The notes beneath the pieces are model-generated. The model was not told where the DNA came from, made no database searches, and saw only the letters and a list, made by a program, of their open reading frames with translations. Below, piece by piece: positions 23,608 to 49,856 of a stretch of 64,000 bases of DNA. This stretch comes from Planctomycetota bacterium. GTDB lineage: Bacteria; Planctomycetota; Phycisphaerae; WQYP01. The stretch's first letter is position 1. Each line of letters opens with the position of its first letter. The translations under genes and the position numbers were made by a program. The stretch lies in assembly GCA_021785435.1 (NCBI GenBank), contig JAJYFE010000002.1, positions 7,978 through 71,977 of the forward strand, read 5' to 3'.

Positions 23608-25614
23608 CTACCGTTTCTCGCCTCGTACCGCCACGGCGCCTTGCATCTGGCCGGTGGTACGTTCAGCACCGGTGAAGCCCAGAGTTTCGTCGAGCCATTG
23701 ATCGGCAAGGGTTACGCCGCGTCTCTGGCGGACGGCGCGATGACTGGCGAAAAATTGGGCCAAACGCAGAATCAGGCGGCCCGCCAAGTTTGGCAGTGGT
23801 TGGCGACGTCGCCACAGAACCCGCAGCAGACTCGAAAGTCGCGCTAACCGCAGGCGCATCAGATCATCTTCCAGAGAGGCAAAAATGATCGAACTGCCGG
23901 GGTCGCCTTGGCGACCGGCTCGACCGGCGAGTTGGCGGTCAATGCGCGGAGCTTCGTGGCATTCGGTGGCAATCACATGCAGGCCGCCGCGACGGCGGAC
24001 ATCGTCCGATAATTGGATGTCCGTTCCGCGACCGGCCATATTGGTGGCCACGGTGATGACAGCCGTTTGCCCGGCCTGAGCGACAATATGGGCTTCTTGC
24101 TCATGGTGCAGGGCGTCAAGCACCACATGCCCAAGCCCCAGGGCGGTTAAGCGCCGGCTTAGGTCGCCGCTGGCGCGGACACTGCGCGTACCAATCAGAA
24201 GCGGGCGGCCCTGGGCATGCACACGCTGAATCTCGGCCAGCACGGCCTGCGTGCGGGATTCACTGTCGGCGAAAAGATGGGTTCCCTCCCGCCGGCGGAT
24301 ACAAGGCCGGTGCGGACCGATGCGGACCAGGGGCAGGCCATAGGTGCGCATCAGCTCCGAGCGAACCTCGGCCATGGTGCCAGACATACCCGCCAGCTTG
24401 GGGTAGCCGCGGAAGAACTGCTGAAAGCTGATGCGGGCCATGGTGCTCCGCGGGCCTTGGACATCTACGCGTTCGCGAGCCTCGACCATCTGGTGCAGGC
24501 CGTCGCGCCACTGGCGATCCGGCATCAGCCGGCCGGTAAATTCATCGACGATGACCACTTTGCCTTCGCGCACCACATACTGGACATCCGGCAGGTAGAA
24601 ATGTTTCGCTTCCAGCGCACGGCCGATCAGTTCGGCGCTGCGCCGGTGGGAGCGCCACACGCCGGGCAGGTCGTGGCGGAGTTCATCAATGCGGTTGGGG
24701 CCGGAGCCGGTGATTTCGACGGTTTTATCCGCCGCCACCAACTGATAGTGGACGCCTAACCGCATCCGCTCCGCCAGACGGTTGGCCATATGGTAGGCTT
24801 CAAGTTGCTCGGAGTTGGGCTGATCGGTGGAAATAATCAGGGGCGTAACCGCTTCATCGATGAGGATGGAATCGGCCTCGTCGACGATGGCGAAATGTAA
24901 CTCCCGCTGCACCCGCCCCGTCGCTGCCGGGCCAAGGCCGGCATGGCCACGCCGGTTCCCCGCCGCCCGGGCGATCAAGCGGTCTCGCAAGAGATCGGCG
25001 CAAACTTCCTTGTTGGTGCAATAGGTGACATCCGCGGCATAAGCCTGCGCGCGGGCGACCGCATCCATTTCGGCGTGGATATAGGCGACCGAAATCCCGC
25101 AGAAATTGTAGAGTTCGGCAAACTGTGCGGCGTCACGCCTGGCCAGATAGTCGTTGACGGTCACCACGTGTACGCCCCGACCACGCCAGCCTTCCAGTAC
25201 GGCCGGCAATACGGCGGTGATCGATTTACCCTCGCCGGTGGCCATTTCGATAAACAGGCCGTCGGCCAGAGCCAGGCCGCCGGCAAACTGTTCCAAGTAG
25301 AGCGTCAGACCGATTTTCCGGCGAACGACCTCGCCGATCAGGGCCGTGGCCCGCACACGATCAGCGGTAGATTGGCGATTACGGCGAAAACGTACGGCTA
25401 AACTGACCAGTTCATCGCGCAGGGCGGCCTCCGAAATATCGCGCAACGCGGGCAGGAGGCATAGGGCTTGCTCCGCCAGACGAAGGTAGTAATTTCGGCG
25501 GGGCCTAAGCTCGCGCAGTTTGCAAGCGGCCGCGTACCACAAGGCATCCAGGCCGGTCGGCAACGGCTCCGCCGAAAATTCAGCAGCGCGTTTTCGCCGC
25601 TGGCCGCTCGACAT
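23608..25614 (-). CDS. SecA-family ATPase paralog (NBD1-PPXD-NBD2 with a truncated scaffold/wing region)
   Basis: Walker A EMATGEGKSI followed by VHVVTVNDYLARRDA. Walker B LHFAIVDEADSILIDEAVTPLIIS. PPXD-like YVVREGKVVIVDEFTGR. Motifs KLAGMSGT, TNMAGRGTDI and RIDRQLAGRAGRQGDPGSS. Only ~95 aa follow motif VI, against ~330 in E. coli SecA. GGAGG RBS 7 nt before the ATG at 25614. Confidence 0.8.
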   Translation of the reverse strand: MSSGQRRKRAAEFSAEPLPTGLDALWYAAACKLRELRPRRNYYLRLAEQALCLLPALRDISEAALRDELVSLAVRFRRNRQSTADRVRATALIGEVVRRKIGLTLYLEQFAGGLALADGLFIEMATGEGKSITAVLPAVLEGWRGRGVHVVTVNDYLARRDAAQFAELYNFCGISVAYIHAEMDAVARAQAYAADVTYCTNKEVCADLLRDRLIARAAGNRRGHAGLGPAATGRVQRELHFAIVDEADSILIDEAVTPLIISTDQPNSEQLEAYHMANRLAERMRLGVHYQLVAADKTVEITGSGPNRIDELRHDLPGVWRSHRRSAELIGRALEAKHFYLPDVQYVVREGKVVIVDEFTGRLMPDRQWRDGLHQMVEARERVDVQGPRSTMARISFQQFFRGYPKLAGMSGTMAEVRSELMRTYGLPLVRIGPHRPCIRRREGTHLFADSESRTQAVLAEIQRVHAQGRPLLIGTRSVRASGDLSRRLTALGLGHVVLDALHHEQEAHIVAQAGQTAVITVATNMAGRGTDIQLSDDVRRRGGLHVIATECHEAPRIDRQLAGRAGRQGDPGSSIIFASLEDDLMRLRLARLSSLLRVLWRRRQPLPNLAGRLILRLAQFFASHRAVRQRRGVTLADQWLDETLGFTGAERTTGQMQGAVAVRGEKR

Positions 25615-25683
25615 GGCGACGCCTCCACCGCTATTCGTCGGCTGGCAGGTTGGCGCAAGCGGCAATTTAGGCATGTGCGTCAT

Positions 25684-25830
25684 AGGCAGTGACCAGTGAC
25701 CAGCGAACCGTGACCAGAGATAAGGAACTCCTTAATGATGACCAATGGCCAGCGAGCAGTGACCAGTGACCGAAGATAAGGCATTCCTTTTTTCTGGTCT
25801 CTGCGTCACTGATCACTGGTCACTGGATCA
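25684..25830. repeat. Two tandem hairpin units of the TGACCAG-heptad / AGATAAGGAAYTCCTT element filling the gap between the M50 gene and the SecA paralog
   Basis: GTGACCAGTGACC arms at 25688-25703, matched by the reverse-complement arm GGTCACTGATCACTGGTCAC at 25808-25828. Cores AGATAAGGAACTCCTTA (25717) and AGATAAGGCATTCCTTTTTT (25777). Confidence 0.6.
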
Positions 25831-28009
25831 TGCGGGCGATCATATCCCACACCTGCACGGCCGCCGGCGCGGATTGCAAGGACAACCGTACCGACACCGT
25901 CTGGCCGGGCCGTAAACACGACAGGCACGGGGAGGTCGGCTGCAACTCCAGGACAAAAAAGGGATTCCGGGCGGCCTGGGGCGTTTTCGCGGCCGGGGCG
26001 ATGGCTCCGCCAGCCAGATAGCTTAGGGCGGCCGAAAACAGTTGGGTTTCCCCGCCGGGGTATTCATGCACGATACGGGCGGATATCAAATCACCCGGTT
26101 GGCCAAACGGCCGGATCTGAGCCTGCCGAGATCCCCCCTGAAAGATGCGGCCCGCTTGATCCTGGCTGACGGCGGCCAACACCAGCAGTTGGTTACAGTT
26201 GACGACTTCACCCAAAGGGTCTCCGCGATGAAAATACGCCCCTATCCGCCGATCTAGATCAGCCGCCACCCATTCACCCGCCACCGGCGCGCGCACCACC
26301 AAGTCCGCGATACGCCGCTTAACATCGGTCAACTCGTCGTTGATGGCGCGAATTTGCCGGGCATAAATTTGCGCTTCAGCCGGATCGTGGGCAATCGCCT
26401 GGAGCCTCTTCATGCGGGTCTGGTCCCACTGCGCCAATAGTTCGGCGCGTTGGGTCAAGAGGTCGGGATTGGTCAAACGCACGAGAACTGTTCCGTCCCG
26501 GCCGGCGGTGACCTCTCGGCCTGATGCGACAAAACGGTGCAGGAATCCATCCGCCTGCGCGTAGACATTCCGTTGCGGTTCACCCCGCACCACGGCCTCA
26601 GCACGGCAATGCTGGGGCAGGGGAATCATCCCCAAGCCGACAATCGCCGCCGCGGCGATTCCGCCGCTCCATAGCAAGGCCCGGGGCCGCCGCCCGTGCA
26701 GTTCCGGGCTGGTCAGCACGTACCAGACACAACGGCCCAGCGGCACGACCACCCAGGCGATGATGCCGGCGGCCGCCATCACCATCAGCAGCAGCATGGC
26801 CGCCGGATATTGGTTCAGCGCCCTGATCAGGAACAACAAGATGCCGACCGATACCAACACCCTCACGACAACCGCACCAACCATATACGCCACCAGCCAA
26901 GCCCGCTGGCCGGGGGCTTCGGTCGGATCCAGCGCCCGTGGCACACGGAAAAGATAGTGGCGGAACAGGAATGAGACATATTGCATGCATCGGCCCAATA
27001 GATTGGGAATCTGCAATAGATCACAGCAAATGTAGTAACCGTCATAACGCAGAAATGGATTGCCGTTGAAAAGCACCGTTGCGACCGAGCCAATGAGCAC
27101 CAGGTCGTAGCAGAGAATGTTCGCCGCACTGCCGGGACTGGTCAGCGTCCAGAGAATCGCCGCGGTCGCGGCAACGGCAAAATCCATCCACATGCCCGCC
27201 GCCCCCACCACGACCCGGCGCCAGCGGTTCTTAAACGCCCACGCGCTGGAGGCATCGACATACGGAATGGGGGTGAAAACCAGCAGCATCAGCCCCATGA
27301 TGTGCACTTCGCCCGTGCGGCCTTCGCGCCAGCCGAATTTCTTGCACGCCAGGGCGTGGGCGGATTCGTGGAGCGTTTTGTCGATTACAAAGGCCAGGTA
27401 CAGCAGCAGCCAGTTGCCGGGCTTGAGCACCGTGGCGATACTCTGGGCCGCGCTGGAGAGACTGCGGCCCGAAGTCAGCACCGCGTAGACGGCGGCGACG
27501 AACAGCGCCAGCCAGAGCAGCAGCCCCGGCCAGGAAAATATCCAACCGAATACTGGAGTCACGGCGTTCAGCACGGCATCCGGATCAAAAAGCGGAATGC
27601 GTGGGAAGAGTAGGTTCATCAGGTTACCTTGGAGTTCGCGTTTGCGACGCTGCCGGTAGCGCCGCATCATCGACGCGGCATCCGGCGGCAACTCGGATTC
27701 CAATAGATTGCTGGACGCCAGTTGGCCAAGCAGTTCCAACGCCTCGGGTTGGGAAGGGGCGTCGTCTTCCAGCCGAGCCAGGCAGATCTCCCAGCACTGG
27801 GCCACGGTCCGTCTCCCGTCCATGAGGCCGATGAACTCGTAGGCCGAGCGGTTCAGCCGGAAATGGGTGTTGTTGGCTTGATCCTGCACCACATACCAGC
27901 GTTTGCCGCGATACGTTTGGCGGACGATCGCCACGCCGCTGCGGATGCGTGGCTTTAAGCCCGCCACCAAGTGCCAGGATTCATGGAAAATGGATTCAAT
28001 GCGCGGCAT
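25820..28009 (-). CDS. Tri-domain fusion: PqqD-like peptide-binding domain + peptidase M50 (site-2 protease) membrane domain + HlyD-family periplasmic adaptor domain
   Basis: N-terminal HFRLNRSAYEFIGLMDGRRTVAQCWEICLARL matches the PqqD consensus (LNxtAxxIxxLxDGRRxVA). HESAH zinc motif inside a TM helix. NGNPFLRYDGY matches the M50 NxxPxxxLDG motif. The C-terminal 250 aa is a HlyD-type barrel-sandwich/beta-barrel domain (VVRAPVAGEWV). The ORF-track start at 28036 lies inside a heptad repeat, so the start was moved to the ATG at 28009. Confidence 0.65.
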   Translation of the reverse strand: MPRIESIFHESWHLVAGLKPRIRSGVAIVRQTYRGKRWYVVQDQANNTHFRLNRSAYEFIGLMDGRRTVAQCWEICLARLEDDAPSQPEALELLGQLASSNLLESELPPDAASMMRRYRQRRKRELQGNLMNLLFPRIPLFDPDAVLNAVTPVFGWIFSWPGLLLWLALFVAAVYAVLTSGRSLSSAAQSIATVLKPGNWLLLYLAFVIDKTLHESAHALACKKFGWREGRTGEVHIMGLMLLVFTPIPYVDASSAWAFKNRWRRVVVGAAGMWMDFAVAATAAILWTLTSPGSAANILCYDLVLIGSVATVLFNGNPFLRYDGYYICCDLLQIPNLLGRCMQYVSFLFRHYLFRVPRALDPTEAPGQRAWLVAYMVGAVVVRVLVSVGILLFLIRALNQYPAAMLLLMVMAAAGIIAWVVVPLGRCVWYVLTSPELHGRRPRALLWSGGIAAAAIVGLGMIPLPQHCRAEAVVRGEPQRNVYAQADGFLHRFVASGREVTAGRDGTVLVRLTNPDLLTQRAELLAQWDQTRMKRLQAIAHDPAEAQIYARQIRAINDELTDVKRRIADLVVRAPVAGEWVAADLDRRIGAYFHRGDPLGEVVNCNQLLVLAAVSQDQAGRIFQGGSRQAQIRPFGQPGDLISARIVHEYPGGETQLFSAALSYLAGGAIAPAAKTPQAARNPFFVLELQPTSPCLSCLRPGQTVSVRLSLQSAPAAVQVWDMIARMIQ

Positions 28010-28040
28010 TTTCGGTGACCAGTGACCAGTGGCCAATGAT
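28010..28040. repeat. TGACCAG heptad repeat (left flank of the four-helix-bundle cassette)
   Basis: GGTGACCAGTGACCAGTGGCC. Confidence 0.55.
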
Positions 28041-28046
28041 ATGGAA

Positions 28047-28505
28047 TTACCCAGATTTCAGGCGGAGTGTGCGGATCGTGGCAAAAAGAATCCGCGCGAT
28101 TTCATCCGCAGCGTCGAGCAGTTGCTGCGCCGTCTGATGGTCCAAGTAATCTATATCCCGCATCCAGCTGATCCAGTACTTCGACTCCTGACATTCCTTG
28201 TATGCAATTGACGCCTGGTGCGACAGTTCCATGCCAGAAATGGCGGCGCCCGCCTCCGCCAGATTTGCGCCGATGGAGGTCCCGCTTCTGAGCAGCTGTC
28301 TGGACAATACGAAGTCGCGCTTTCGCCGGCGCGCGTCTTCGCAAGTCTTCACCACACGGAGCGCAAAGCCATAAGCCTTCACATACGCGGGACCCCCGGC
28401 GGCAGCGCCATCATTCTTGGGGTATCGCACTGCCGGCCCCGTCGTGCAACTGCCCTCTGCCACGTTATCGGTCACGGTGTTCCCTTTCCTCTGGTCACTG
28501 GTCAC
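28047..28505 (-). CDS. Four-helix-bundle protein (23S rRNA intervening-sequence protein family)
   Basis: LSRQLLRSGTSIGANLAEAG and KECQESKYWISWMRDIDYLD are signatures of this family. 152 aa. Confidence 0.8.
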   Translation of the reverse strand: MTSDQRKGNTVTDNVAEGSCTTGPAVRYPKNDGAAAGGPAYVKAYGFALRVVKTCEDARRRKRDFVLSRQLLRSGTSIGANLAEAGAAISGMELSHQASIAYKECQESKYWISWMRDIDYLDHQTAQQLLDAADEIARILFATIRTLRLKSG

Positions 28506-28532
28506 TGGTCACTGGTTACTGGTCACTGACTT
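28487..28532. repeat. Five tandem copies of heptad CTGGTCA (one variant CTGGTTA); right flank of the four-helix-bundle cassette, overlapping the stop codon of the TolC-family gene
   Basis: CTGGTCACTGGTCACTGGTCACTGGTTACTGGTCACTGAC. Inverted relative to the 28010-28040 copy. Confidence 0.65.
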
Positions 28533-30414
28533 TCACGCCGCTGAAACGCAGTAGCGTGCCTTTGGCCTGCTGAAACTTCACCAGGTCCACATCGTAACGG
28601 GCAATGGCGGCCTGCTCGGCTTGACTGGCCGCCGCGAGGTTTTGCGCCGCATCCAACTCCAGCTGCAAGAACGTGGGGGTCAGACTTTGGCCCGATTGTT
28701 CCTGCACGCGCAGGCCCGTCACCACGCGCTGGGCGGCCGCGCGCCGCCGTCGAGCCGCCCGCAATTGCTGCCAGTCTTCCGCCAGATTCCACAGGCTGAT
28801 TACAATGTCGCGCGTGACATTCTGGGCATCACGCAGCAGACGAGTAAGCGCCCCTTGGCGCTGGTAGCGACGACGCTCCAGCTCGGCTTTTGCGGCCCGG
28901 TTGCCCAGCGGCACTTCCAATTTCAAACCCACTTCGTACCCAATATGCGGATCATTGAGCATGCGATTGTCCGCGCCGGCGAAACTGCCGTTCGGGGCCA
29001 ACCCCATGGAACTCGTCGAGGCCACCAAGTCCAGCTTGGGTAAAAGGCCGTTTTCCGCAACCTGCACATCGATTCCAGCGCGGGCCATCGCGGCGCGATC
29101 GTGCGCCAATTCCGGCCGATTGTGCAAAGCCGTGGCAATGTCGTCGCGCAAATCGAACAGGATGGGCACCGCTAACAGCGGTGTGGACGGTACCATCCGC
29201 ACCGTGGAAGCCACCGGAATCGAAGGCGTGTTTATCTGGGCCTTAAGCCGCTGCGAGTAATCATGGGCGTCGCGCAGCGTGCCGGCCAGTGTGAAACGCG
29301 CCTGGGCCAGCGCCGAATTCGCCTGGCTGATCTGCACGGCATCGACATCCATGCCTTGACGCGCCAGCAACCGCGATCGGATCTGCTGGAGCGAGGCGAT
29401 CAACCGCTGTTCGATGCGGATGTCGGCCGTCGCATTGGCCAATGAAAAATAGGTTTCCTCCAACTGGGCGAGGATCTTGATCACGCCGGCGCGAAAGTCC
29501 GCCAGGGCGATCCGCCGGTTGGTCCGGGCGATGCGTATCTTGGCCGAAGTGACCGTGGGACCAAAACCCCGTAACAACGGTTGGGAGAGGCCCAGCGTCA
29601 GGGCATTGCTGTAGGAAGGATTAATGTCCGGCGGCAAGCTGGAAGAGGAATGGACATCCAAATAGTTGGATGTTCCTTGCAGATACATGGTGCCGCCAGT
29701 GGGCAGCAAACCCCGCAATCCGATGTCGTTATTGAACGTGTCCTGATTGTTGTAACCGATGGGTCCTACTCCGCCGATAGTGGACGGGTATGGGGTTGGC
29801 TGATTCTGCTTCTGCCAGTCGCTTTCGCCAAAAAAGATCGGGTCGAATGCCGCCTCGGCTTGGATCAGTTCGGACTGGGCGATTCGAGGCGAAAACGATT
29901 CGAGCTTGATGGATAAATTATGCCCGAGGGCATCGTCCATCGCCTTGGCCAGTGAAATGGGAACCCTGCCGCCAGGGGGCAGCGTGGCGATGGTGGGTTG
30001 GGTTGACGCCGTGGTTGTGGTTGGGCCGGGGGTGGGCTGTGACGATGGCCCCACTTGGGTACCGGGCGCGGGGAGTTCCTGTATGCCATGGTCGGCCAGT
30101 ATCGCCTCTTTTCCTAAAACCAGGCCGTAATTATTACGGATGTTATGCGCCACCGCAGCAGCCGCATAAGCCTGCCATTCGGCGCCATGGGGACCTTGCT
30201 CGAACACTGAGGCACAGCCGGCCAAGGCAAACAGCGCGGCTACCAGTGCCGTCAAGGCACACGCGCCCCAGCCGGAGCGCTGTAGCCGGCAGCTGACACG
30301 AAGCAACGAAGACTTAACGGATTTTTGGGGTGCGGGGCGCGGTGGAACCGGCAACCGAAAGAATTCGCGGATTACGCGGAGGGCGGGGATTTTGGGTAGG
30401 AACGAAATGAACAA
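28516..30414 (-). CDS. TolC/NodT-family outer-membrane factor lipoprotein
   Basis: Signal peptide and lipobox ALFALAGC. Two OEP-type repeat halves with long coiled-coil segments. Thr/Pro-rich linker. The start is probably non-ATG and lies upstream of the signal peptide. Confidence 0.75.
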   Translation of the reverse strand: MFISFLPKIPALRVIREFFRLPVPPRPAPQKSVKSSLLRVSCRLQRSGWGACALTALVAALFALAGCASVFEQGPHGAEWQAYAAAAVAHNIRNNYGLVLGKEAILADHGIQELPAPGTQVGPSSQPTPGPTTTTASTQPTIATLPPGGRVPISLAKAMDDALGHNLSIKLESFSPRIAQSELIQAEAAFDPIFFGESDWQKQNQPTPYPSTIGGVGPIGYNNQDTFNNDIGLRGLLPTGGTMYLQGTSNYLDVHSSSSLPPDINPSYSNALTLGLSQPLLRGFGPTVTSAKIRIARTNRRIALADFRAGVIKILAQLEETYFSLANATADIRIEQRLIASLQQIRSRLLARQGMDVDAVQISQANSALAQARFTLAGTLRDAHDYSQRLKAQINTPSIPVASTVRMVPSTPLLAVPILFDLRDDIATALHNRPELAHDRAAMARAGIDVQVAENGLLPKLDLVASTSSMGLAPNGSFAGADNRMLNDPHIGYEVGLKLEVPLGNRAAKAELERRRYQRQGALTRLLRDAQNVTRDIVISLWNLAEDWQQLRAARRRRAAAQRVVTGLRVQEQSGQSLTPTFLQLELDAAQNLAAASQAEQAAIARYDVDLVKFQQAKGTLLRFSGVKVSDQ

Positions 30415-30489
30415 CTGGGTTACTCTCCGTTTGCGTTAATGATACTCTGACACCCCTGGCGCGTTGTCAAACGATAGATTTCGGGTCGG

Positions 30490-30605
30490 AGAAAGAGCCC
30501 CAGACTCCCCACCGAACCCGAAGCACCCGCCTTTAGGCGGGTGAACGGATTCCGGACGCGATACCCGAAAGCTAAGTGGTGACAAAGCACTAAAGCCTTG
30601 GCCGG
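30490..30605. repeat. Family-2 dispersed element (intra-operon copy)
   Basis: GAAAGAGCCCC...GAACCCGAAGCACCCGCCTTTAGGCGGGTGAACGG...CCCGAAAGCTAAGTGGTGACAAAGCAC. Confidence 0.5.
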
Positions 30606-30653
30606 ACATCCCTCCCCCACGCCATCGCCACGGCGATGGCGTGGGGGATCGCG

Positions 30654-32120
30654 CTACACCCATAACTTCATCCGCAGCCAGTCGATAAGGCGGCGCGTCC
30701 AAATCCAGATGTAATGGCCTTTCCCCGCGTCGATGCGGGCCGTGCCCTGCATCCCCGGATGAAACCAGGTCGGGGGGCGAATCAACCGCGCCCATACATC
30801 GAACACATTCTTCTTATGCCTCACCTGGGCCGCCGGATCGACCCGGGAAACGACCAAACGCACCTTGATGCCCGGATTGGAGGCCGGCGCCAGGGAGCCA
30901 CTTTCGCCCGCGTGGATATAAAGAATGTCCGCATCCGCCACGCGGATGCGCGCCACCAACGGTTTCAGCGGCGCCACCGTAAAAAGCACCTGACCCTTGC
31001 GCACCGGCGAACCGATTTTCCGCTCCAGCCGACCCGTCAGGACCTCGCCGGAAAGGGCCGACCGGATATCCGCATGGCGGATTTCCCGTTTGAGCAGACG
31101 AATCCGAGCCGCGGCGGCGTTGGCCCCATCCGCCGCGATCTGGGCGTCGGCGAACTTGCCCCGACTTTGGGCGATCTGCTCTTGTTTAAGATAGGTTGAC
31201 CGTTTCGCCTCGGCCGTGGCCAATTGGTCGCGCAAACTGGCTGTATCCAGGGTCGCCAATGTGGTCTGTTTAGCCGTGATCTCATCGCCAGGCAAAACGT
31301 CAACTGTCCGCAGATAGCCGTCGAATGGAGCGATCACCTGGGCCTGCCGAGTTGGTTCCAGCCGAAAGGGCGCCCGAATTCGAAATGTCCCGACGCCAAA
31401 AATCGCCCATCCCAGCAACCCAGCAATCGCCACCGCCGCCGCTTTCACCCACGTGTGCTTTGGCCCCACCGCCAGCGCCAAGCCACGCCGCAGCGATTCA
31501 GCCAGTTTTACGCCAATCCACCGCTCGTGCCGCCAGGCGTCCGCGATCCGCGGCGTCAACAAATCCGCCAGCCGGCGCATCGTTTCAAGTTCGGTCTGAT
31601 CCGGTGTGCGCGGCGCGGCGAACTCGAAAAGCAACGCCCCCCCAAGCTCGCCGTGCCGCAGCGGAAGCACGAGCACCGAACGATGCTCATCGCTTTGGCT
31701 TAACTTCTCGGCGCAACGGTACAGAAATTTAGAATCCGGTGGCGCTGGGACCAGGACTTCGCAATCCTGATCCAGGCATTCCTCCATCGCCTCCTCAATC
31801 AGGATCACTGCCTGCATCTTGCGCAGGATTTTTTCCGTGTGGCTCATTGCCACGACGTGGACTTGGCGGCCTTTCAGTATCCCCAGCGTCACCCGCGCGG
31901 CGGCGAAATCCGCGGCGAGCTGGTTGCAAACCGCCATCGCCAGGGCCATGAAGTGCTTGAAGTCCTGCGCCAGGGCCGCCAGAGAGCCTAGCGTCTTTTC
32001 GTGTAGTTCCGCCCGCCGTTGCTGCTCTTGCGCCGCCTGGACCTGCTGCTGCGTATGCTCCCACGCCGCCTGCGGCACCATCACATAGGGGGACTCGGTC
32101 ACACTCTGCGGCTGACTCAT
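30654..32120 (-). CDS. GAF-like N-terminal cytoplasmic domain + TM helix + HlyD-family membrane fusion (periplasmic adaptor) protein
   Basis: GAF-like block ending VLVLPLRHGELGGALLFEF. TM WVKAAAVAIAGLLGWAIFGV. Lipoyl-like QVIAPFDGYLRTVDVLPGDEI. Coiled coil. Beta-barrel GMQGTARIDAG. Confidence 0.6.
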   Translation of the reverse strand: MSQPQSVTESPYVMVPQAAWEHTQQQVQAAQEQQRRAELHEKTLGSLAALAQDFKHFMALAMAVCNQLAADFAAARVTLGILKGRQVHVVAMSHTEKILRKMQAVILIEEAMEECLDQDCEVLVPAPPDSKFLYRCAEKLSQSDEHRSVLVLPLRHGELGGALLFEFAAPRTPDQTELETMRRLADLLTPRIADAWRHERWIGVKLAESLRRGLALAVGPKHTWVKAAAVAIAGLLGWAIFGVGTFRIRAPFRLEPTRQAQVIAPFDGYLRTVDVLPGDEITAKQTTLATLDTASLRDQLATAEAKRSTYLKQEQIAQSRGKFADAQIAADGANAAAARIRLLKREIRHADIRSALSGEVLTGRLERKIGSPVRKGQVLFTVAPLKPLVARIRVADADILYIHAGESGSLAPASNPGIKVRLVVSRVDPAAQVRHKKNVFDVWARLIRPPTWFHPGMQGTARIDAGKGHYIWIWTRRLIDWLRMKLWV

Positions 32121-32140
32121 AATCGCTCACGCTTCAGGGG

Positions 32141-43200: not shown

Positions 43201-43741
43201 GCCCGGCGGTTTGGCCGGAGCCGGCGATCTGGCCGCTGGCGTTAATGGCGAGCGCCGACCAGTTGGAACTGCCCGGGAACGGCACGGGGCTATATTGGTT
43301 GCCGGAATACACGAACCCCTGGTTGTAGGAGGAAGTTGAGGTCTCAAAAGTCGCGTAACCCACGATCTGGTTGGAGTCGTTCATCCCGGTGGCGAACGTG
43401 GCCGAGGCGTCGGAAGGAATGCCCAAGCCCTGAATCGTATAATAAGTTGGCACGGATGGAGCATCAGTGCCGGCCTGTTGCGACCCGGCCGTCAACGGCA
43501 TCACAACCGACGCGGATGTCGGCGGGTTATTCGCCAACAGGCCAGCGGCGGCCCCGGCCGATGCGCTCAGGAGCACGCGCGGCTCCAGCGCTTCAAGACG
43601 TGGGCCGCGCCGTGCCACGCGGCGATGCTTGGCGGCCCTGCGGCGGCTGCGCCTCCGTAATACGCTGTCCAAATTGTGCAAAAAGATAAGGAAGGGCACC
43701 GCCGCACTCCCTAAATTCGAGCACCGCTCGCTGGAATCCAC
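40259..43741 (-). CDS. Giant secreted protein: Arg-rich N-terminus with a LEALEPRVLLSA motif, beta-strand repeat passenger-like region, two dockerin-like Ca-binding repeats
   Basis: N-terminus RRRSRRRAAKHRRVARRGPRLEALEPRVLLSASAG. Dockerin-like DANLDGLVTLPDFTAVRDHYG and VVNLQDFTAVRDHYG. PATR-like GxxTLTLSG repeats. Confidence 0.7.
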   Translation of the reverse strand: MDSSERCSNLGSAAVPFLIFLHNLDSVLRRRSRRRAAKHRRVARRGPRLEALEPRVLLSASAGAAAGLLANNPPTSASVVMPLTAGSQQAGTDAPSVPTYYTIQGLGIPSDASATFATGMNDSNQIVGYATFETSTSSYNQGFVYSGNQYSPVPFPGSSNWSALAINASGQIAGSGQTAGQNYNAFLYSGGSGTADTGGLTVALGSLSGSLGLPVSYGAGIDTAGDVVGTSGTNADAYHAFLFPNPTVSNNSMTDLGTLGGSASYASGISPNGTYIVGSSTTSGTGNPSHAFLWTNGGTSGVSGNPEMQDLGTLGGNASTATAVNDSGDVVGFSPATTGGDDHAFFYDGTMHDLGDVDGFGTYPLAINNSGVIVGYYRSDSLGDSQAFIYANGTMTPLASLILNNPGWALEESTGINSNGDIVGFGAVRGGKTEAFLLTPTAGPTALTWDPKGTGVDGDGTWSASAASWGSGTTAWTSGDVASIGNGGSGSYTITIDDSGGQVSAGGLIFNSMGSGDSYTISGTSSDPLTLSGTITLDNNATISAPIIASGPLVVSGPHTLTLSGDDSQLTGGLTLENGATVDFTTAPALLPASAAITVGLGGGTLQYASGLSSANNLTLQANGIINAGGATASNPVTYSGTVTDTTGQTLTIENGAVNFSGTNNGTGDFTLGTLQVGGPLAAATLQFASPASLPAPGATITLNNGDLAYTGSTASTVSIGNVLAVSGTSNIIDSGGFSGAYTLQFTGDIDGPAAATLQLTDGNVELSGNNAGFAGTLELSDTAGSSTLLADSGNALPGGGITLDGGTLENNSGGSLTIGNALTLNSGGGTVNTNLLASLATGAITGNGGLTVTGGGALTLENSDTFTGLTTINAGALIVGSGGTLDGTSGLTIAGGATLNLDNTAVGNGVIITYGSGTNPNTTIQGYIASGAITAPSGYSVGYANGADGVVNGLSAGQEKIMATLPGDANLDGLVTLPDFTAVRDHYGQANQGWDHGNFGYSGVVNLQDFTAVRDHYGKALSATTQSPAIDAILSGATTPGGAGLTPGGAGGGAVLTLTATLDSAPSLNTGETLTLNNTGTLTPAAPCTGGVGPTGNLTPSVTVGGSIFGAASEASFAGGTAPTADNSEFALPPAIIGPTGLLANPLQPPLISGALLAA

Positions 43742-44102
43742 CGGGTAATCAGCCAGACGCCAACAAAGTCACCTGGCGCAGCGCCATTGACCCTGTGGCG
43801 ACAGGATCAAACCGCCGCGTGTGCCCAAAAACCGCCTCTTGCCCCGAAAATCCAGACCGCCATGCCCGTTGGCCTGCCCATGCATCGCGGCACGAGGCGG
43901 CGCGCCGAGTCGCAGCAACTCTACTCCGTCTTTCCCTCCCATACGAAATACAACAACCGGTTGAAAGAGTTACGGCAGATGAATAACCCGGCAACCGGAT
44001 TGCAACACAAAGAACGACTGCATTGTCGGACCCCCAAGATATCTGTCAAGCCACCAATCATGATGGCAGCAACCCGGCGTCTGCGTTCAACCGGGCGCCC
44101 CC

Positions 44103-47100
44103 TCAAAGCGGCCTCGCCTCTAACGGCAACCTTAAAATATCCGGCGCAAGGCTGGCGTCCAATCCACCCGCTAGCCGGGACGTGGGGCTGGCTCCCGGCG
44201 GAGAAACCGTGCCGAAGCTCGCGGTGGAAATCGGCCCGCCGGAGAAATCCCCCGCTGGCAGGATCCAATATGCGCTACCGCCGAACGACGCGACGACCCG
44301 GACGGCGCCCGAGGTCGTCGAACGGGCCAGCGCCGAGCCGATCGCCGAATCGAAGGCAAGCGCACTACCGTTGCCCGCAACCCCGGCCCCGGCGCGACCA
44401 AGCGGGACCCCTACCTGTGCGGCGGGCCCGTAGCCGCTATTCAATGAGCCAGCGTGTGTCCGGCTCGTGCCCTGGCTGCTCTGCGGGACCGCGGTCGCGC
44501 TAACCACACCCGGTACCAGGAGGTTCGCTATCGGGCTGCCCAAGCCGGTGACCAAGTCGTACCCGGGGCCAGCGTAGTAGCCGTTATAGCCGCTGGTAAT
44601 GTCGTGGAAATCCGTGCTTGGGAGATTATAAAGTGCAGATAGGGTCTGGCCCGAAGAGAGAGAGCCGTCACCCAAAGACGCCCGGCCCTGGTCGACGAGC
44701 GCTACCAGGCCAGCCCACATGGGACAAGCCAGGCTCGTACCGCCCTCCTCTCTATTTATCCACGGTGCCGCTGATCCATAGTCGTAGGAGTCATAGATCG
44801 GCACGCCAGTGGCTGGATCGGCGTCCATCGAGACATCGGGCGTGGTTCGGTACCCAGAACCTAGCCCGTTGGTCTTGCCGCTCTGGTAGGCTGGCTGCGG
44901 TTCGCTTTGGCTGATCCCGCCACCCCCGGCGATCGCTGGATTCCACGAGTCGCTTCCCAGGCTCCAGCCCACCTCGCCACCCCAACTATACCCGCCGCTG
45001 CCATTCGCGTTGACAGTGAGCGTCGTTCCCCCGACCGCGACCACATTGGGCGAATAAGCTGGGTAATTGCCGGGCGCTCCCTGGTCCCCCGTCGAAGCGA
45101 GGAACGTGACTCCACCCGCCAAGCCGGAGCCGCCCGTGTGCCCGGGAGGCGTCACCAGAAGTTTATCGTAACTCGGTTCATATGACCACCACAAGGTCGT
45201 CAGGTCCGACTCAGGCTCGCCCCAGCTCATGGAAACCGCGACGACCCCATTCAACGATGCCGCGGTCTGCACGGCGGTATAAAGGTCGCCAGCAGAGCTA
45301 TTCGCCTCGACGAGCACGATATTGGCGTCCGGCGCGATGACGTGCGCCCATTCGACGTCAAGGGATTCCTCGCTGGTCCAGCTACCGCCATCGGACGGCA
45401 ACTCCGATGAACCACCATCCTGGTTGACCACGGAAAGCGTCGGGCCGCCTGCCGTACCGAACTGCGGCAGACCAAATTCAGCGCTAAACGCATTGGCATC
45501 GGCAACAATGTAGGGATCGTTGTACGCATCGACGATAGCGATCGTCTGGCCCTGCCCGTAAGCCGGCGTACCGCCAAAATTAATCGTGCTGGCGCCATAG
45601 GCGCCCAGACCATACGCCTCCCGCATTTGCGTCGGCGTCAGTCCGGACGGCGTGGTGCTGCCTGGGCCCAGAGCGGGGAGTATGGCCGTAGCGACATTCG
45701 AGACTAAACCCGTGCCGGGGTTGCTTACGGTAACTTCAATGGTATCGCCCGGCTGAGCTTGGTAAGGCCAGTCGCCATACGCCCAACCGCTGAACCCCGC
45801 AACCGTTAACTCTGAGTCGGTCCAATTCGTCACCTCCAGGCCAACAGCATCGCCCGTGCCGCCAGCGTGGAAGTCTTGCGTGACATCGTACACGTCGATG
45901 TACGGGCTTGTGCCGTCGAAAGCTGCCTGCGAGCCGAAGCCGCTGCCACTGATCGTGAGGTCATCATTGTAGTACCAGAGAAACTCGGTTGGCGAACCGG
46001 GAGCAACGCCTGATATCGCTGGTGACTGGGCAGCCGAGTAAGCCGCCAGGTACGGTACCAGCAGGTTGGCCTTGGGGGTTCCCAGGCCTGTCTCATCCTG
46101 ATAGCCGTATTTGGCGTACTGGGAGCCGGCGCTGTTGAGGTAGAAGTCGCTCGCGGAGGCGGTGTACAAGGCGGGCAACGTTTGTGCGTTTCCCGTGAGC
46201 GTCGGCAGACCAGCGTCTGCACGCCCCTGATCCGCCAACGCAATCAGACCGGCCCACTGCGGCGCGCCGGCGCTGGTCCCCAGAACGGCCTCCCAGCCGC
46301 TGCTGGTGTAGATAGCGTACGGCTTAGCGCAGTATGACACGTCCGGGGTGGAGCGGTCGGAGGTGTCGGAGAGGCCGTTGGCGCCCTGTTGATAGCTTGG
46401 CTGCGGCTCGTACTGGCTGGTACCCCAAGCAGTGCCCTGATAGGGACCGTTGCCATCGTGCCAGGCGCTCTCACCACCGGATGGATAGTCGCCCGCAGCA
46501 TCCAGCCCACCGGTCGCCGAAGGGCCGTTAAACACCGTGCCGCCGACGGATAAAACATTGCCTGAAGCGGACGGCCAGTTCACCGTGTTCCATTGGTCGC
46601 CGGCGGCGGCGACGAACGTGACACCGCTCGTTGCGAACGCGGAGTCGAGGGATGTTTCCGTCGCACCACCCCAAAGGGAATCGGACGAATTCCATTCCCG
46701 CCACCCGAGGCTCATCGACACAACCGACGGACTAAAGTTCAGCGCGGTTTTCACAGCGTTCGCTAGATCCACAGGGCTATATGCGCCAATCTGAGGGAGG
46801 CCCCGCCAGGTCCAACCGACCCACGCACTGCTGTCTTCCTCCACTACGACGATTTTCGCGGCCGGCGCCACGGCGTGCGCCCACTCAACGTCAAGCACGT
46901 TTTCCAGTCCATCGCCCGAATCGTTGCCGCAGTTTTCAGTGTCGGGATTATACTGGCCGGGCGAAAGCACGTTGCCGTTTTGGTCGGTTACCGTCAGCCA
47001 GGTACTGGCACCACCGTAGGTGCCATACAGGTTATCGCCATTGGCCGCCTTCATGTTGTAGTCAAACGCGTTCACATCTGCGTAAAGGTTTAGATCGTTG

Positions 47101-49856
47101 GTAAGGCCGATGACGGCGATCGTCTGGCCCTGGCCGGTATAAGCGTTGCCGGCTGAATCAGTCGTCAATTGGTTGAAACCATAAGCATTGAGAACTTGGG
47201 TGGTCGCGAGCTCAGAAGCTGGCGGCGGTTCATGCCCCTGCGAAATCGTAAACTGGTATACCTGCGAGGAAAGGCCGGTTCCAGGATTCACCACACGCAG
47301 GCTTAGCGGATCGTTCGGCGAAAGCACGTTTGTGGTCTCATTGACCTGCTGCCCATACTCGCCACCGAGGCTGGCGACCTGAATCGAATTTGGAGTCCAC
47401 GAGGTGACGTCGGCTGTGACCCAGTCGTATGAGTGACCGGCATTGAACGATGCATTAAAGTCCTCCAGCCAAAGGTCGGGGCTGTCGCCGTTGAAGGCAT
47501 TCTGCGTTCCAAAGTTGCTGCCCTGGATCGCGAAGCTCCAATTGTCATAGCTCTGGCCCGATACGGGAATGGCTGTCGCCGTCACACCCGTGATCTTTGG
47601 CGGGCTTGCCGAGGTCCCAACCGATGGCGCTTGGAACGCGTAAACATTCGACACCTGGTTATTGTCTGGGTTCACCACCGTCAGGGTCAAGTTATCGCCG
47701 GGATTGATGAAGTACGTGCCCGTGCCGTAGTTGCCGCCCAGATTCGAAATGGCGATGGAGGTCGCGCTCCAGGCGCCGGAAGCTATGTTGGCCGTGACGC
47801 CGTTCTTCGAATCGGTGCTCCAACCAGCGGTGCTGTCGCTCAAGACCAGGTCAGCACCGGTGCCGTTGGAACCGAATCCGCCGCCGGTGACAGCAAAACT
47901 CCAATTATAGCCGCCGCCGCTCATCGGAATGGCGCCGGGAGTGGCATTCGTAATCGCTGGAACGGCCGAGTTGGTTACATTGCACCAGTCGATGACGTTG
48001 GTGGGAGTCCACGCGTTGCCGGCGGTGCTATACTCGCCGCCCGCGAACATCACTAGGTCGCCCACGGACGCCGAGGCCATCCCATAGCGTGGTTGGGACA
48101 ACTCAGCGAATGACCACTGGTTCGTGGTAACGTCAAATATATTGACGATGCCCGTGTAGTTACCAACCGCGGCATCGGATTCTGTGTCCCCACCCGCAAA
48201 AAAAGCAAGATCGCCGGAAGTAACTGCGGACATTTCACCCGCCGCCTGTGGCACAGCGGCGGTTGTCCACTGGTTAGTATCCAAGTTGTAGATGTCTACG
48301 GCGCCGCTGGCGGCGTAGCCGCCTACACCCGGCGGCAACCAGTTGCCCATCGTTACAACATCAGTTTGGTGGGTCTGTCCGCCAGCGAAGATCGCATCGT
48401 CGCCCACAGTTGTCGCTGCGATGCTGCTACGCGCCTGCGAGAGCAAGGCGGTGGACCATTTTCCATTGTTGGCGTTATAAATGTCCACTGCGGCAGTTGT
48501 ATTGGGAGTGGCGCTGGCAACATTGTTGACCGTCCCGCCCGCAAAGATCGCCAGATCGCCCACGGTGGTCGCGGCAATAAACCAGCGTGCTACCGAAAGC
48601 GTTGCCGTCGACCATGTTCCCGTGCTTGTGTTGTAAATGTCCACATCGCTGCTGGGCGACCATGTTCCGTCCGAATACGTGGCGCCACCGGCGAATATTG
48701 CGAGACTGCCCACGGTCCCGGCGGCCAAACCGTAACGCGCTTGCGAAAGGGCGGGTGCGCTGGACCACTGGCCGGTGCTGACATTGTAGGTATTTACCGC
48801 AGCGGTCGGAGCCCAAGCTCCGTTCGAGTATGACGCGCCGCCAGCGATGATCAGCTCATCGCCGACCGCAGTCCACCCCGCCCCGACCGTTGCGTCTGGC
48901 TGTACAGTGGCGGACCATTGGTCCGTGCCGGTGTTATATATCTCGAGACTGCTGTTAATAGCCCACCCGCCGCTTGTGTAATAACTTCCGCCCGAGAGGA
49001 CGACGTATTGGCCCACCGAGATCGCGCGCATCGCGCCACCGGGACTGGGCAATGAACTGGTTGACCATTGTCCTACGCCGGGCTGCGGCGCTGGAGCTGC
49101 TACCTGGTAAATGTTGGATGCTTGGCCGGTGCTGGGATTGGCGATCTGTACGGTCAGGGCGTCGCCTGACGAAATAACCCAGCTACCGCTGCCATAACCG
49201 CCCGTCAGACCGTCAATTTGAATCTGCGTGTCCGACCAATTGACGACATTTGCGGTTACGGCGTCGTTGGAACCGGAATACCCGGCACCCCAACCTGCTG
49301 TGGCGTCGTAGATCAGCAAGTTGGAACTATCGCCGTTGAAGGGCGATTGCGACCCAAAACCACCGCCCGTAATCGTAAATTCCCAGTTGTAGTAACTTTG
49401 TCCGTTGATTGGTATCGCGGTGAGGCTCACGCTGGCGATCACGGGGCCCGTCGTTGTAGCATCGGTGGATACGGCCAGACTGACCGAGTCTGTGGAGGGC
49501 TGCAGTAGCGTGGGGGATTCGGCCGGATTCGCCGTGCCGACAGTGGTGGAATCCACGCCCGCTACCAACGGCACCGTGACGGACCGCGTGGCGGCGGATA
49601 GGGCCGCCAGTGCAGCGGTGGGAAGCAGGCCGGACCCGCTCAACAGCAGCCGCGGCTCGAGGGCTTCAAAGACGGGGCGCTGGGCACGGGGCGGCCGCCT
49701 GAAAGATCGGCTGGGCCAAGCGTCCACCCCCGTAAAGGGCAGGCCAAGGTTTAACGAGGCCACAACTCGCTTAATAAACGCACGCCCCCGCACCCGGCCG
49801 ATCCGAGGCGCGCGACCCGTGTCAGAACGCGCCGCGGAAAATATGCGAACACCCAT
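44103..49856 (-). CDS. Giant secreted protein: FEALEPRLLLSGS N-terminal motif, IPT/TIG-like and Kelch-type propeller repeats, two sedolisin (S53) peptidase domains
   Basis: Two copies of GQGQTIA[VI]... VEWAH[AV][VI]AP... GGTS[AL][GA][AC]P[QM]WAGL[IV]AL[AV]DQG. Kelch-like repeats (IYNTGTDQWS, VDIYNTSTGTWS). AAGGAGG RBS before the ATG at 49856. Confidence 0.7.
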   Translation of the reverse strand: MGVRIFSAARSDTGRAPRIGRVRGRAFIKRVVASLNLGLPFTGVDAWPSRSFRRPPRAQRPVFEALEPRLLLSGSGLLPTAALAALSAATRSVTVPLVAGVDSTTVGTANPAESPTLLQPSTDSVSLAVSTDATTTGPVIASVSLTAIPINGQSYYNWEFTITGGGFGSQSPFNGDSSNLLIYDATAGWGAGYSGSNDAVTANVVNWSDTQIQIDGLTGGYGSGSWVISSGDALTVQIANPSTGQASNIYQVAAPAPQPGVGQWSTSSLPSPGGAMRAISVGQYVVLSGGSYYTSGGWAINSSLEIYNTGTDQWSATVQPDATVGAGWTAVGDELIIAGGASYSNGAWAPTAAVNTYNVSTGQWSSAPALSQARYGLAAGTVGSLAIFAGGATYSDGTWSPSSDVDIYNTSTGTWSTATLSVARWFIAATTVGDLAIFAGGTVNNVASATPNTTAAVDIYNANNGKWSTALLSQARSSIAATTVGDDAIFAGGQTHQTDVVTMGNWLPPGVGGYAASGAVDIYNLDTNQWTTAAVPQAAGEMSAVTSGDLAFFAGGDTESDAAVGNYTGIVNIFDVTTNQWSFAELSQPRYGMASASVGDLVMFAGGEYSTAGNAWTPTNVIDWCNVTNSAVPAITNATPGAIPMSGGGYNWSFAVTGGGFGSNGTGADLVLSDSTAGWSTDSKNGVTANIASGAWSATSIAISNLGGNYGTGTYFINPGDNLTLTVVNPDNNQVSNVYAFQAPSVGTSASPPKITGVTATAIPVSGQSYDNWSFAIQGSNFGTQNAFNGDSPDLWLEDFNASFNAGHSYDWVTADVTSWTPNSIQVASLGGEYGQQVNETTNVLSPNDPLSLRVVNPGTGLSSQVYQFTISQGHEPPPASELATTQVLNAYGFNQLTTDSAGNAYTGQGQTIAVIGLTNDLNLYADVNAFDYNMKAANGDNLYGTYGGASTWLTVTDQNGNVLSPGQYNPDTENCGNDSGDGLENVLDVEWAHAVAPAAKIVVVEEDSSAWVGWTWRGLPQIGAYSPVDLANAVKTALNFSPSVVSMSLGWREWNSSDSLWGGATETSLDSAFATSGVTFVAAAGDQWNTVNWPSASGNVLSVGGTVFNGPSATGGLDAAGDYPSGGESAWHDGNGPYQGTAWGTSQYEPQPSYQQGANGLSDTSDRSTPDVSYCAKPYAIYTSSGWEAVLGTSAGAPQWAGLIALADQGRADAGLPTLTGNAQTLPALYTASASDFYLNSAGSQYAKYGYQDETGLGTPKANLLVPYLAAYSAAQSPAISGVAPGSPTEFLWYYNDDLTISGSGFGSQAAFDGTSPYIDVYDVTQDFHAGGTGDAVGLEVTNWTDSELTVAGFSGWAYGDWPYQAQPGDTIEVTVSNPGTGLVSNVATAILPALGPGSTTPSGLTPTQMREAYGLGAYGASTINFGGTPAYGQGQTIAIVDAYNDPYIVADANAFSAEFGLPQFGTAGGPTLSVVNQDGGSSELPSDGGSWTSEESLDVEWAHVIAPDANIVLVEANSSAGDLYTAVQTAASLNGVVAVSMSWGEPESDLTTLWWSYEPSYDKLLVTPPGHTGGSGLAGGVTFLASTGDQGAPGNYPAYSPNVVAVGGTTLTVNANGSGGYSWGGEVGWSLGSDSWNPAIAGGGGISQSEPQPAYQSGKTNGLGSGYRTTPDVSMDADPATGVPIYDSYDYGSAAPWINREEGGTSLACPMWAGLVALVDQGRASLGDGSLSSGQTLSALYNLPSTDFHDITSGYNGYYAGPGYDLVTGLGSPIANLLVPGVVSATAVPQSSQGTSRTHAGSLNSGYGPAAQVGVPLGRAGAGVAGNGSALAFDSAIGSALARSTTSGAVRVVASFGGSAYWILPAGDFSGGPISTASFGTVSPPGASPTSRLAGGLDASLAPDILRLPLEARPL

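Follow-up and report, generated by a model that had tools for sequence, protein, structure and literature searches.

We suggest that five conserved genes on a 64,000-nucleotide stretch of DNA from a Planctomycetota bacterium (contig JAJYFE010000002.1, assembly GCA_021785435.1; hereafter the window, with positions counted from its first letter) form the core of a dedicated, type-I-like trans-envelope exporter that is independent of ATP-binding cassette (ABC) transporters, and that giant surface proteins bearing an N-terminal LEPR-XLL motif are its probable cargo, in this window the two proteins encoded at 40259-49856. We assign this reading a probability of roughly 0.55. The core cassette, at 23608-33120, encodes a short periplasmic adaptor, an adaptor with a GAF-like domain (GAF-adaptor), a TolC-family lipoprotein, a fusion of PqqD-like, M50 protease and adaptor domains, and a truncated SecA-like ATPase. 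It belongs to an array of nine open reading frames (ORFs) that run head to tail on the minus strand from 49856 down to 23608, just where an earlier reading of the DNA letters (the first-pass annotation) had placed nine co-directional genes. The members of the array on which the argument depends are as follows.

44103-49856, minus strand: giant protein 1, 1917 aa; LEPR-XLL leader, Kelch propeller and sedolisin-like peptidase region; candidate cargo
49605-49673, minus strand: leader motif of giant protein 1, PVFEALEPRLLLSGS; LEPR-XLL, residues 62-84
40259-43741, minus strand: giant protein 2, 1160 aa; LEPR-XLL leader, six HAF repeats, one PATR repeat and one dockerin-like Ca-loop motif; candidate cargo
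43535-43600, minus strand: leader motif of giant protein 2, PRLEALEPRVLLSAS; LEPR-XLL, residues 48-69
32191-33120, minus strand: short periplasmic adaptor, 309 aa; RND_mfp/HlyD matches, N-terminal signal or anchor
30654-32120, minus strand: GAF-adaptor, 488 aa; cytoplasmic GAF-like domain, membrane helix at residues 225-243, periplasmic HlyD-type adaptor; member of the conserved triad
28516-30414, minus strand: TolC-family outer-membrane lipoprotein, 632 aa; OEP domain and LAGC lipobox
25820-28036, minus strand: PqqD-like/M50/adaptor fusion, 738 aa (729 from the database start); hallmark of the cassette
23608-25683, minus strand: truncated SecA-like ATPase, 691-aa ORF (668 aa as deposited); nucleotide-binding domain 1 (NBD1), preprotein cross-linking domain, NBD2 and the first part of the scaffold helix only

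The first-pass annotation took the system to be undescribed, which is wrong for the core module, as the same locus and the same ATPase/M50 idea were published in 2015. By computer analysis, Kamneva, Poudel & Ward (PLoS One 10:e0129066, PMC4452313) reported from five phyla an ABC-less locus encoding a secondary SecA_DEAD protein together with Peptidase_M50/HlyD, GAF/HlyD and HlyD proteins and sometimes OEP, proposed the SecA_DEAD protein as the ATPase and the M50 protein as the membrane component and possible pore, and inferred spread by horizontal transfer, while calling the biological role 'completely unknown'. Their paper makes no mention of PqqD, DUF3467, LEPR, RTX or any substrate (PMC4452313), and our literature search found no follow-up to it. 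In the searchable literature the LEPR-XLL domain has passing mentions only, in two papers, and no export partner for it was found there. Relative to the 2015 description, what appears to be new is the link to LEPR-XLL cargo, together with the PqqD-like domain and DUF3467.

Conservation of the cassette across phyla

Related loci were gathered with an alignment of the fusion protein, 80 from representative genomes and 80 from metagenomes, 158 of them being non-redundant. Adjacency is counted over loci with enough sequence, and paired counts refer to representative genomes and metagenomes, in that order. The loci come from Planctomycetota, Verrucomicrobiota, Desulfobacterota, Nitrospirota and beta- and gammaproteobacteria. 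A co-directional SecA-like gene lies directly downstream of the fusion gene in 65/69 and 50/51 loci (115/120 together), and a GAF-adaptor gene directly upstream of it in 59/64 and 58/61 (117/125 together); phylogenomically, these three genes recur as a unit. In the window, the fusion and SecA-like genes share a strand and are 136 bp apart. Homologues of the short adaptor adjoin the cassette in 47/80 and 31/80 loci, and a TolC-family gene does so in 19/80 and 20/80. The arrangement is far beyond chance, given its recurrence in ~170 loci of several phyla.

A frequent extra component is a DUF3467 protein of 100-125 aa, encoded directly upstream of the GAF-adaptor in 22/81 and 19/80 loci (e.g. L081, 7671-8048; L162, 12741-13061) from Planctomycetota to Alphaproteobacteria and Nitrospira. 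The common gene order is (TolC)-adaptor-DUF3467-GAF-adaptor-fusion-SecA-like. A role for DUF3467 as a SecB-like chaperone was considered and rejected, as hhalign comparison with E. coli SecB (for which an approximate sequence was used) gave a probability of 0.2%. A profile search of the PDB with DUF3467 returned no match, and its AlphaFold model, at a predicted local distance difference test score (pLDDT) of 57, was not used. In L001 and L002, the two closest relatives of the window, the adaptor and TolC genes are oriented divergently to the fusion and SecA-like genes; the window has all of them on one strand.

As the first-pass annotation had claimed, no ABC, resistance-nodulation-division (RND) or major facilitator superfamily (MFS) pump flanks the array in the window, and clustering of all neighbouring ORFs in the 160 neighbourhoods revealed no conserved pump gene of these three classes. 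Candidate partners were rejected: an MFS-acyltransferase gene (11394-13706, minus strand) and an ABC permease gene (52028-53053) in the window are distant and not conserved with the cassette, while the RND pump of L014 and the ABC-F-like gene of L005 stand alone among the related loci. The truncated SecA paralog remains the only ATPase of the module and the M50 protein its only polytopic inner-membrane part, also in agreement with the first-pass annotation. No further SecA is encoded in the 64-kb window.

LEPR-XLL giants beside the cassette

A hidden Markov model built from LEPR leaders was run over all six-frame ORFs of the related loci, and an N-terminal LEPR-type motif was found on long ORFs in 22/158 non-redundant loci. 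In 20 of these 22 loci the nearest gene end is <1 kb from the cassette, although such zones make up just 20.5% of flank bases (binomial p = 2.6e-12), and LEPR density reaches ~99 per Mb there vs 2.5 per Mb elsewhere in the flanks. The enrichment of LEPR motifs near the cassette, which the first-pass annotation had proposed to look for, is thus a pronounced one. A cruder count of giant ORFs abutting the cassette (22/92 loci) is not used as evidence, since it may include antisense shadow ORFs in GC-rich sequences.

Individual loci agree with the statistics. In L002, the closest relative, a LEPR-like giant lies 333 bp past TolC; a LEPR/cadherin/RTX giant lies directly upstream of the cassette in Nitrospira (L066, 2660-7381), and the giant next to the gammaproteobacterial cassette L071 (3-6719) carries C-terminal RTX repeats and a Peptidase_M10 region. 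The latter two match a LEPR-XLL/RTX/serralysin giant of ~8,000 aa from a Vibrio genome paper (PMC10868602). Where the giant's N-terminus could be examined on alphaproteobacterial plasmids, 5/5 had a LEPR-XLL giant of 4,000-12,900 aa directly upstream of the cassette, with no ABC exporter visible next to those plasmid giants that were examined:

Methylosinus sp. C49 plasmid: 8,847-aa giant, IIFDTLEPRVLLNAD, then DUF3467, GAF-adaptor, fusion, SecA-like, adaptor and TolC
Pseudosulfitobacter plasmid: 12.9K-aa giant directly upstream, named 'LEPR-XLL domain-containing protein' by the Prokaryotic Genome Annotation Pipeline (PGAP)
Mesorhizobium ciceri plasmid: 10.5K-aa giant, HFEALEPRLLLSAD
Thalassospira marina plasmid: 4,033-aa giant, LEPR-XLL by PGAP
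Alisedimentitalea plasmid NZ_CP123586.1 (L171): 8.1K-aa 'calcium-binding protein', motif just upstream of the annotated start

In the last of these, an in-frame VEQLEPRLLLAAD (L171, 1226-1378) immediately precedes the annotated start of the 8.1K-aa giant, and the database protein has probably lost its LEPR-XLL leader through the start-codon call.

In 28 giants adjacent to cassettes, the leader follows the consensus P-x-[FL]-E-x-L-E-[PEQS]-R-[LVI]-L-L-[ST]-A with a basic stretch before it, and E(-2), L0, E+1 and R+3 are near-invariant; RPVFEALEPRLLLSGSGLL is an example of the 25-mer. The maximum 15-residue hydropathy after the motif is 0.4-1.85, compared with 2.19 for the signal peptide of the autotransporter-type protein in the same array. 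Judged by hydropathy, the LEPR leaders lack a Sec-type hydrophobic core and are not Sec signals; nor do they offer a membrane-spanning hydrophobic stretch, which speaks against the suggestion of the first-pass annotation that M50 cuts a signal-anchor within the membrane. Because LEPR genes abut cassettes beyond chance, plasmid giants lie upstream of theirs and the leaders are without a Sec core, the two LEPR-XLL giants of the window are likely cargo.

Both window giants exceed the cutoff of 17 bits for LEPR-8K (NCBIfam NF012209), at 26.1 bits for giant 1 and 25.5 bits for giant 2. Giant 1 matches Kelch families in Pfam, and its residues 1434-1792 are sedolisin-like (kumamolisin-As match, E 2e-21). 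Giant 2 matches HAF_rpt (TIGR02913, 1.7e-42) and PATR; its dockerin-like feature comes down to one DANLDG-type motif at residue 969, with no dockerin match in Pfam at E<=0.01. Neither giant has a HemolysinCabind (RTX) match in Pfam, and in this respect they do not resemble classical type I secretion system (T1SS) cargo, with its C-terminal signal or RTX repeats.

A sceptical view would be that the cassette serves unlinked substrates and that the LEPR genes of the window merely sit in a region rich in surface proteins. Planctomycete genomes do hold many giant genes, an unrelated 6.9-kb autotransporter gene stands between the LEPR genes and the cassette, and a promoter/terminator scan of 23000-41000 found no more sites than in shuffled sequence and so says nothing on operon structure. 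However, the only two LEPR motifs of the 64-kb window both fall inside the array, and the closest relative, 20 other loci and five plasmids have a LEPR gene directly adjoining the cassette, which makes such a coincidence quite improbable.

The PqqD-like/M50/adaptor fusion

Three parts can be distinguished in the fusion protein: a PqqD-like domain at residues ~29-115, an M50/site-2-protease membrane core at ~150-470 and a periplasmic adaptor at 472-738. The family is large, with 3,360 representative clusters (50% identity) at E<=1e-30. Residues 29-431 match the NCBIfam model daptide_HExxH (NF041824) over model positions 1-370 of 379 with E 1.5e-44, at a score (152.7) that is about half of the family cutoff (300), and YydH/LiaK (NF058609) is matched at E 1.5e-4, with 21.5 bits vs a cutoff of 225. 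The HExxH motif (223-227) and the N-x2-P-x4-DG motif (N324..P327..D332-G) are invariant in 30 homologues (H223, E224, H227, N324, P327, D332). Seven membrane spans are predicted, and the AlphaFold model (pLDDT 83) shows an N-terminal domain of three strands and three helices, a membrane core with seven spans, and an adaptor at the C-terminus. The C-terminus, which also matches HlyD_3 and HlyD_D23, resembles MacA/AcrA/MexA in Foldseek (E 1e-11).

PqqD-like domains are typical of pathways for ribosomally synthesized and post-translationally modified peptides (RiPPs). Given that residues 29-431 find their best family match in the intramembrane leader peptidase of daptides, that YydH/LiaK matches as well, and that Streptomyces mpaP genes are among the remote tblastn matches, one could argue that the fusion trims a small unannotated precursor, with the giants as incidental neighbours. 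Yet the daptide score is far under its cutoff, and the 160 neighbourhoods contain neither a RiPP modifying enzyme nor a conserved short precursor ORF, DUF3467 (125 aa) being the sole conserved small gene; the surroundings of the cassette in the window are likewise free of RiPP modifying enzymes and short precursors. SecA-type motors, moreover, act on long polypeptides, and the adjacency of LEPR giants has p ~3e-12. We regard maturation and export of a small peptide as very unlikely.

The truncated SecA-like ATPase

The SecA-like protein matches SecA_DEAD (2e-87), SecA_PP_bind (4e-25) and P-loop_SecA (1e-51) in Pfam and aligns to residues 17-552 of B. subtilis SecA, covering NBD1, the preprotein cross-linking domain and NBD2, with intact Walker A/B, DEAD and arginine-finger motifs. 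Only ~80 residues follow NBD2, a tail that resembles just the first scaffold helix; by alignment, then, the protein is without the helical wing domain, the two-helix finger, the second half of the scaffold and the C-terminal tail. Family members are uniformly ~650-680 aa long, and the window copy scores below all NCBIfam SecA/SecA2 cutoffs (best 539.6 vs 814, PRK12904).

Canonical SecA uses the wing domain, two-helix finger and C-terminal tail with SecY, and the loss of these parts argues against canonical docking of the SecA-like protein on SecY. This bears on the two-step scheme of the first-pass annotation, taken here as a Sec-coupled route in which the paralog would act as an accessory SecA2 on SecYEG, the M50 domain as signal peptidase, and the adaptors and TolC would carry the product over the outer membrane. 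The preserved NBD1, preprotein cross-linking domain and NBD2 fit that scheme, as does the N-terminal position of the leader, suited to N-to-C threading. Mycobacteria have truncated SecA2 proteins that work with SecYEG, and PDB 4uaq is among the structure matches of the window protein. Against this stand the end of the paralog ~80 residues past NBD2 without SecY-engaging parts, the absence from LEPR leaders of the hydrophobic core that the SecYEG lateral gate requires, and genomic context: the paralog is nearly always in an operon with the M50 and adaptor genes, and no SecY2 or accessory Sec gene lies nearby. A Sec-coupled route is therefore unlikely.

Adaptors, outer-membrane exit and a proposed export route

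HlyD_3/HlyD_D23 matches occur in three window proteins. The short adaptor, besides these two families, matches RND_mfp (TIGR01730) at 106.4 bits against a cutoff of 94.9. The window copy of the GAF-adaptor matches HlyD_3 (5e-11) and, marginally, GAF_2 (E 0.02), with a GAF domain present in 18/20 aligned family members; like the copies in L001 and L002, it lacks the ~150-aa N-terminal extension of most homologues (L013-L080; ~620-690 aa). The TolC lipoprotein matches OEP at 2.4e-26 and has a LAGC lipobox, and thus the window genes supply both the membrane-fusion protein and the TolC-family outer-membrane factor expected of a T1SS.

From these parts we infer the following route. On the cytoplasmic side, the PqqD-like domain of the fusion would bind the basic, non-hydrophobic leader (P-x-F-E-x-L-E-P-R-x-L-L-S-A), and the adjoining M50 active site near the cytoplasmic membrane face would remove it. 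The SecA-like motor, which keeps the polypeptide clamp and has lost the SecY-engaging parts, could then drive the unfolded chain through an inner-membrane assembly of fusion and GAF-adaptor, and the three adaptor domains would bridge to the TolC lipoprotein for exit. Leader binding and cleavage, the coupling of the motor and the path or pore across the inner membrane are the conjectural elements of this scheme.

Relatives without the motor gene are instructive. On plasmid pCSC3H3 of Thalassospira marina (L170, 5522-24487) a LEPR-XLL giant, DUF3467, GAF-adaptor, M50 fusion, adaptor and TolC follow one another in this order, and no SecA-like gene is found within 20 kb. On E. coli plasmid NZ_CP104683.1 (L172, 1-9773) and a Citrobacter freundii plasmid (L174), likewise SecA-less, genes for TolC, two adaptors and an M50-adaptor fusion of 710 aa come after that of a 4,457-aa Ig-like giant whose N-terminus, RFALESRQLFDGA, is LEPR-like. 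DNA of this SecA-less cassette is present at >=99% identity in 24/5,426 complete E. coli genomes, mostly plasmid-borne. Such variants strengthen the link between giants and M50-adaptor fusions; at the same time they imply that the motor is dispensable, encoded elsewhere or replaced, which tempers the motor hypothesis.

The existence of these SecA-less relatives is one of several points that weigh against the exporter proposed here. The LEPR genes of the window are 7.1 and 11 kb away from the cassette, behind the 6.9-kb autotransporter gene; DUF3467 is missing from the window (as from L001 and L002); and only ~14% of loci have a LEPR gene beside the cassette, a figure to be read with the many short contigs, and the many giants cut by the locus edge, in mind. 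The functional case is computational throughout, and the cassette has no recognised pore-forming component. M50 proteases are not known to act as protein translocators. The PqqD and Peptidase_M50 matches of the fusion fall just below Pfam gathering, at 22.3 bits vs 23.4 and 21.8 bits vs 27.2, respectively. In Methylobacterium extorquens the operon is barely expressed in exponential phase, the GAF gene excepted (PMC4452313). Some LEPR-XLL giants (L066, L071, Vibrio), finally, end in C-terminal RTX repeats.

On the sub-threshold calls, the daptide match, the invariant motifs, the AlphaFold model and the Foldseek adaptor match lend support to both PqqD and M50. More generally, the domain calls of the first-pass annotation are upheld by profiles for SecA, TolC/OEP, HlyD, the four-helix bundle, Kelch and sedolisin; PqqD and M50 are below Pfam gathering and otherwise backed, GAF is marginal in the window copy, and the dockerin shrinks to one motif.

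C-terminal RTX repeats are typical of ABC-type T1SS cargo. Their presence on several LEPR-XLL giants (L066, L071, Vibrio) is one of the points in favour of a different role, in which the giants would exit via an ABC-type T1SS encoded elsewhere and the cassette would hold the N-terminus until a GAF-controlled M50 cut released it, by analogy with LapA/LapG/LapD. The GAF domain points to regulation by a ligand, regulatory roles are classical for site-2 proteases, and SecA-less variants exist. Against this role, the system has a dedicated polypeptide motor and three adaptor domains, and roughly one locus in four also supplies a TolC gene; ABC exporters were not seen next to the plasmid giants examined, and the window giants are free of RTX. 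We consider this role unlikely, and continue to favour export of the LEPR-XLL giants by the cassette itself.

Neighbouring genes and database names

Two members of the array were counted by the first-pass annotation among the components of the system and probably do not belong to it:

33389-40255, minus strand: autotransporter-type protein; signal peptide, PATR repeats, EprS-like C-terminus; neighbour, probably outside the system
28047-28505, minus strand: four-helix-bundle (23S rRNA intervening-sequence) protein; PF05635, TIGR02436; passenger gene

The longest ORF of the autotransporter runs for 2288 aa from a GTG that lies 60 codons upstream of a Met opening a textbook signal peptide. This internal Met, ~180 bp after the preceding gene, is probably the true start and gives a protein of ~2228 aa. 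By inspection and hydropathy, its signal peptide MKRTQKRLCLLAAMAAVGSLSLPAMA is of the classical type. The protein has ten PATR repeats, and its C-terminal 240 residues match the EprS autotransporter C-terminus (E 1.7e-15); the Pfam Autotransporter domain is not among the matches, and no LEPR motif is present. Hence, of the three giant secreted proteins put forward as cargo, two carry the LEPR-XLL leader, whereas the 2228-aa protein, with its own Sec signal peptide and autotransporter C-terminus, is probably a self-sufficient bystander.

The four-helix-bundle gene is wedged between the TolC and fusion genes, with a 10-bp gap on either side, and its product matches PF05635 (23S_rRNA_IVP) at 1.4e-22 as well as TIGR02436. 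No homologue was found in any of the 160 related loci, and the gene therefore looks like a small passenger or insertion, not a member of the module.

Elsewhere in the window (17362-18849 and 19172-22863, plus strand) lie genes for a prepilin-type N-methylation/DUF1559 protein and two beta-helix or glycosidase-like proteins, none of them kept with the cassette; prepilin-type N-methylation/DUF1559 proteins are typical of Planctomycetota. A SapC family gene is inserted between the fusion and SecA-like genes in the Pseudosulfitobacter cassette (L165, 22263-23084) and lies beside the giant gene in Alisedimentitalea (L171, 1558-2355); its product may be another accessory component in Rhodobacterales.

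Database names obscure the family. PGAP calls many of the SecA-like proteins 'prepilin peptidase' and others 'DEAD/DEAH box helicase' (P0122, P0189; L162, 17219-19135; L165, 23077-25101), while the fusion appears as 'PqqD family protein', 'biotin/lipoyl-binding protein', 'HlyD family adaptor' or 'hypothetical'. Both proteins are thus systematically mis-annotated.

Wider implications

A broader proposal, which we advance tentatively and rate at somewhat less than even odds, is that LEPR-XLL is the export leader of a distinct and widespread pathway for the largest bacterial proteins (to ~13,000 aa). In such a pathway, the leader would be read by a PqqD-like domain and removed by the fused intramembrane M50 protease, a SecA-derived motor would take the place of the ABC transporter, a heteromeric adaptor/TolC conduit would lead outward, and a SecA-less offshoot would have become established on E. 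coli and Citrobacter plasmids. If true, the diderm envelope would possess a separate route assembled from T1SS parts (adaptors, TolC), a Sec part (the SecA-derived motor) and RiPP parts (a leader-binding domain and an M50 leader peptidase), serving giant adhesin-like proteins in Planctomycetota, Verrucomicrobiota, Nitrospirota, Desulfobacterota and Proteobacteria. In any case, linkage to LEPR-XLL genes gives a concrete, testable cargo and signal to a module known since 2015 as a computational curiosity without cargo, and the plasmid-borne copies, including the SecA-less E. coli variant, offer tractable hosts.

Comparison with known systems

The window is closest to the locus of Kamneva and colleagues, having the same four protein types and no ABC transporter and coming from the same phyla: a short SecA_DEAD protein, an adjacent M50+HlyD protein, a GAF+HlyD protein (GAF_2 at E 0.02 in the window copy) and further HlyD/OEP proteins without ABC are all present. 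It differs in being rearranged, with the adaptors and TolC upstream on the same strand and the four-helix-bundle gene inserted, as well as in its shortened GAF protein and the lack of DUF3467. Similarly, the window giants pass the cutoff of the LEPR-XLL family (NF012209), the N-terminal motif of which is found on very large surface-type proteins, but they are small for it, at 1.2K and 1.9K aa vs 4K-13K on plasmids.

Like the accessory SecA2 proteins (mycobacterial SecA2; SecA2/SecY2 of Gram-positives), the SecA-like ATPase would be a second, shortened SecA paralog for a subset of exported proteins. Unlike them, it occurs in a diderm, is much shorter (~660 aa), is without the two-helix finger, wing domain and tail, and is in every case linked to M50 and adaptor genes and in none to SecY2 or Asp genes. 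The fusion shares HExxH, NPxxxxDG and an N-terminal domain of peptide-binding type with the M50 leader peptidases of RiPP pathways (daptide MpaP, NF041824; YydH/LiaK, NF058609), from which it is set apart by its periplasmic adaptor and by presumed substrates of 1,000-13,000 aa.

With classical T1SS and peptidase-containing ABC exporters (PCATs), such as HlyBD-TolC and CvaAB-TolC, the cassette has in common membrane-fusion adaptors and a TolC-family duct, as well as presumed giant adhesin-like cargo, in part with RTX. It departs from them in having a SecA-like ATPase and no ABC transporter, an intramembrane M50 protease in place of C39, and three distinct adaptor proteins, of which two have cytoplasmic domains. 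As in PCATs, the presumed signal is N-terminal, and the protease that would cleave the leader is physically part of the export machine. In its logic, an N-terminal leader that would be both read and cut by a protease belonging to the machine itself, the cassette therefore resembles the peptidase-containing ABC exporters.

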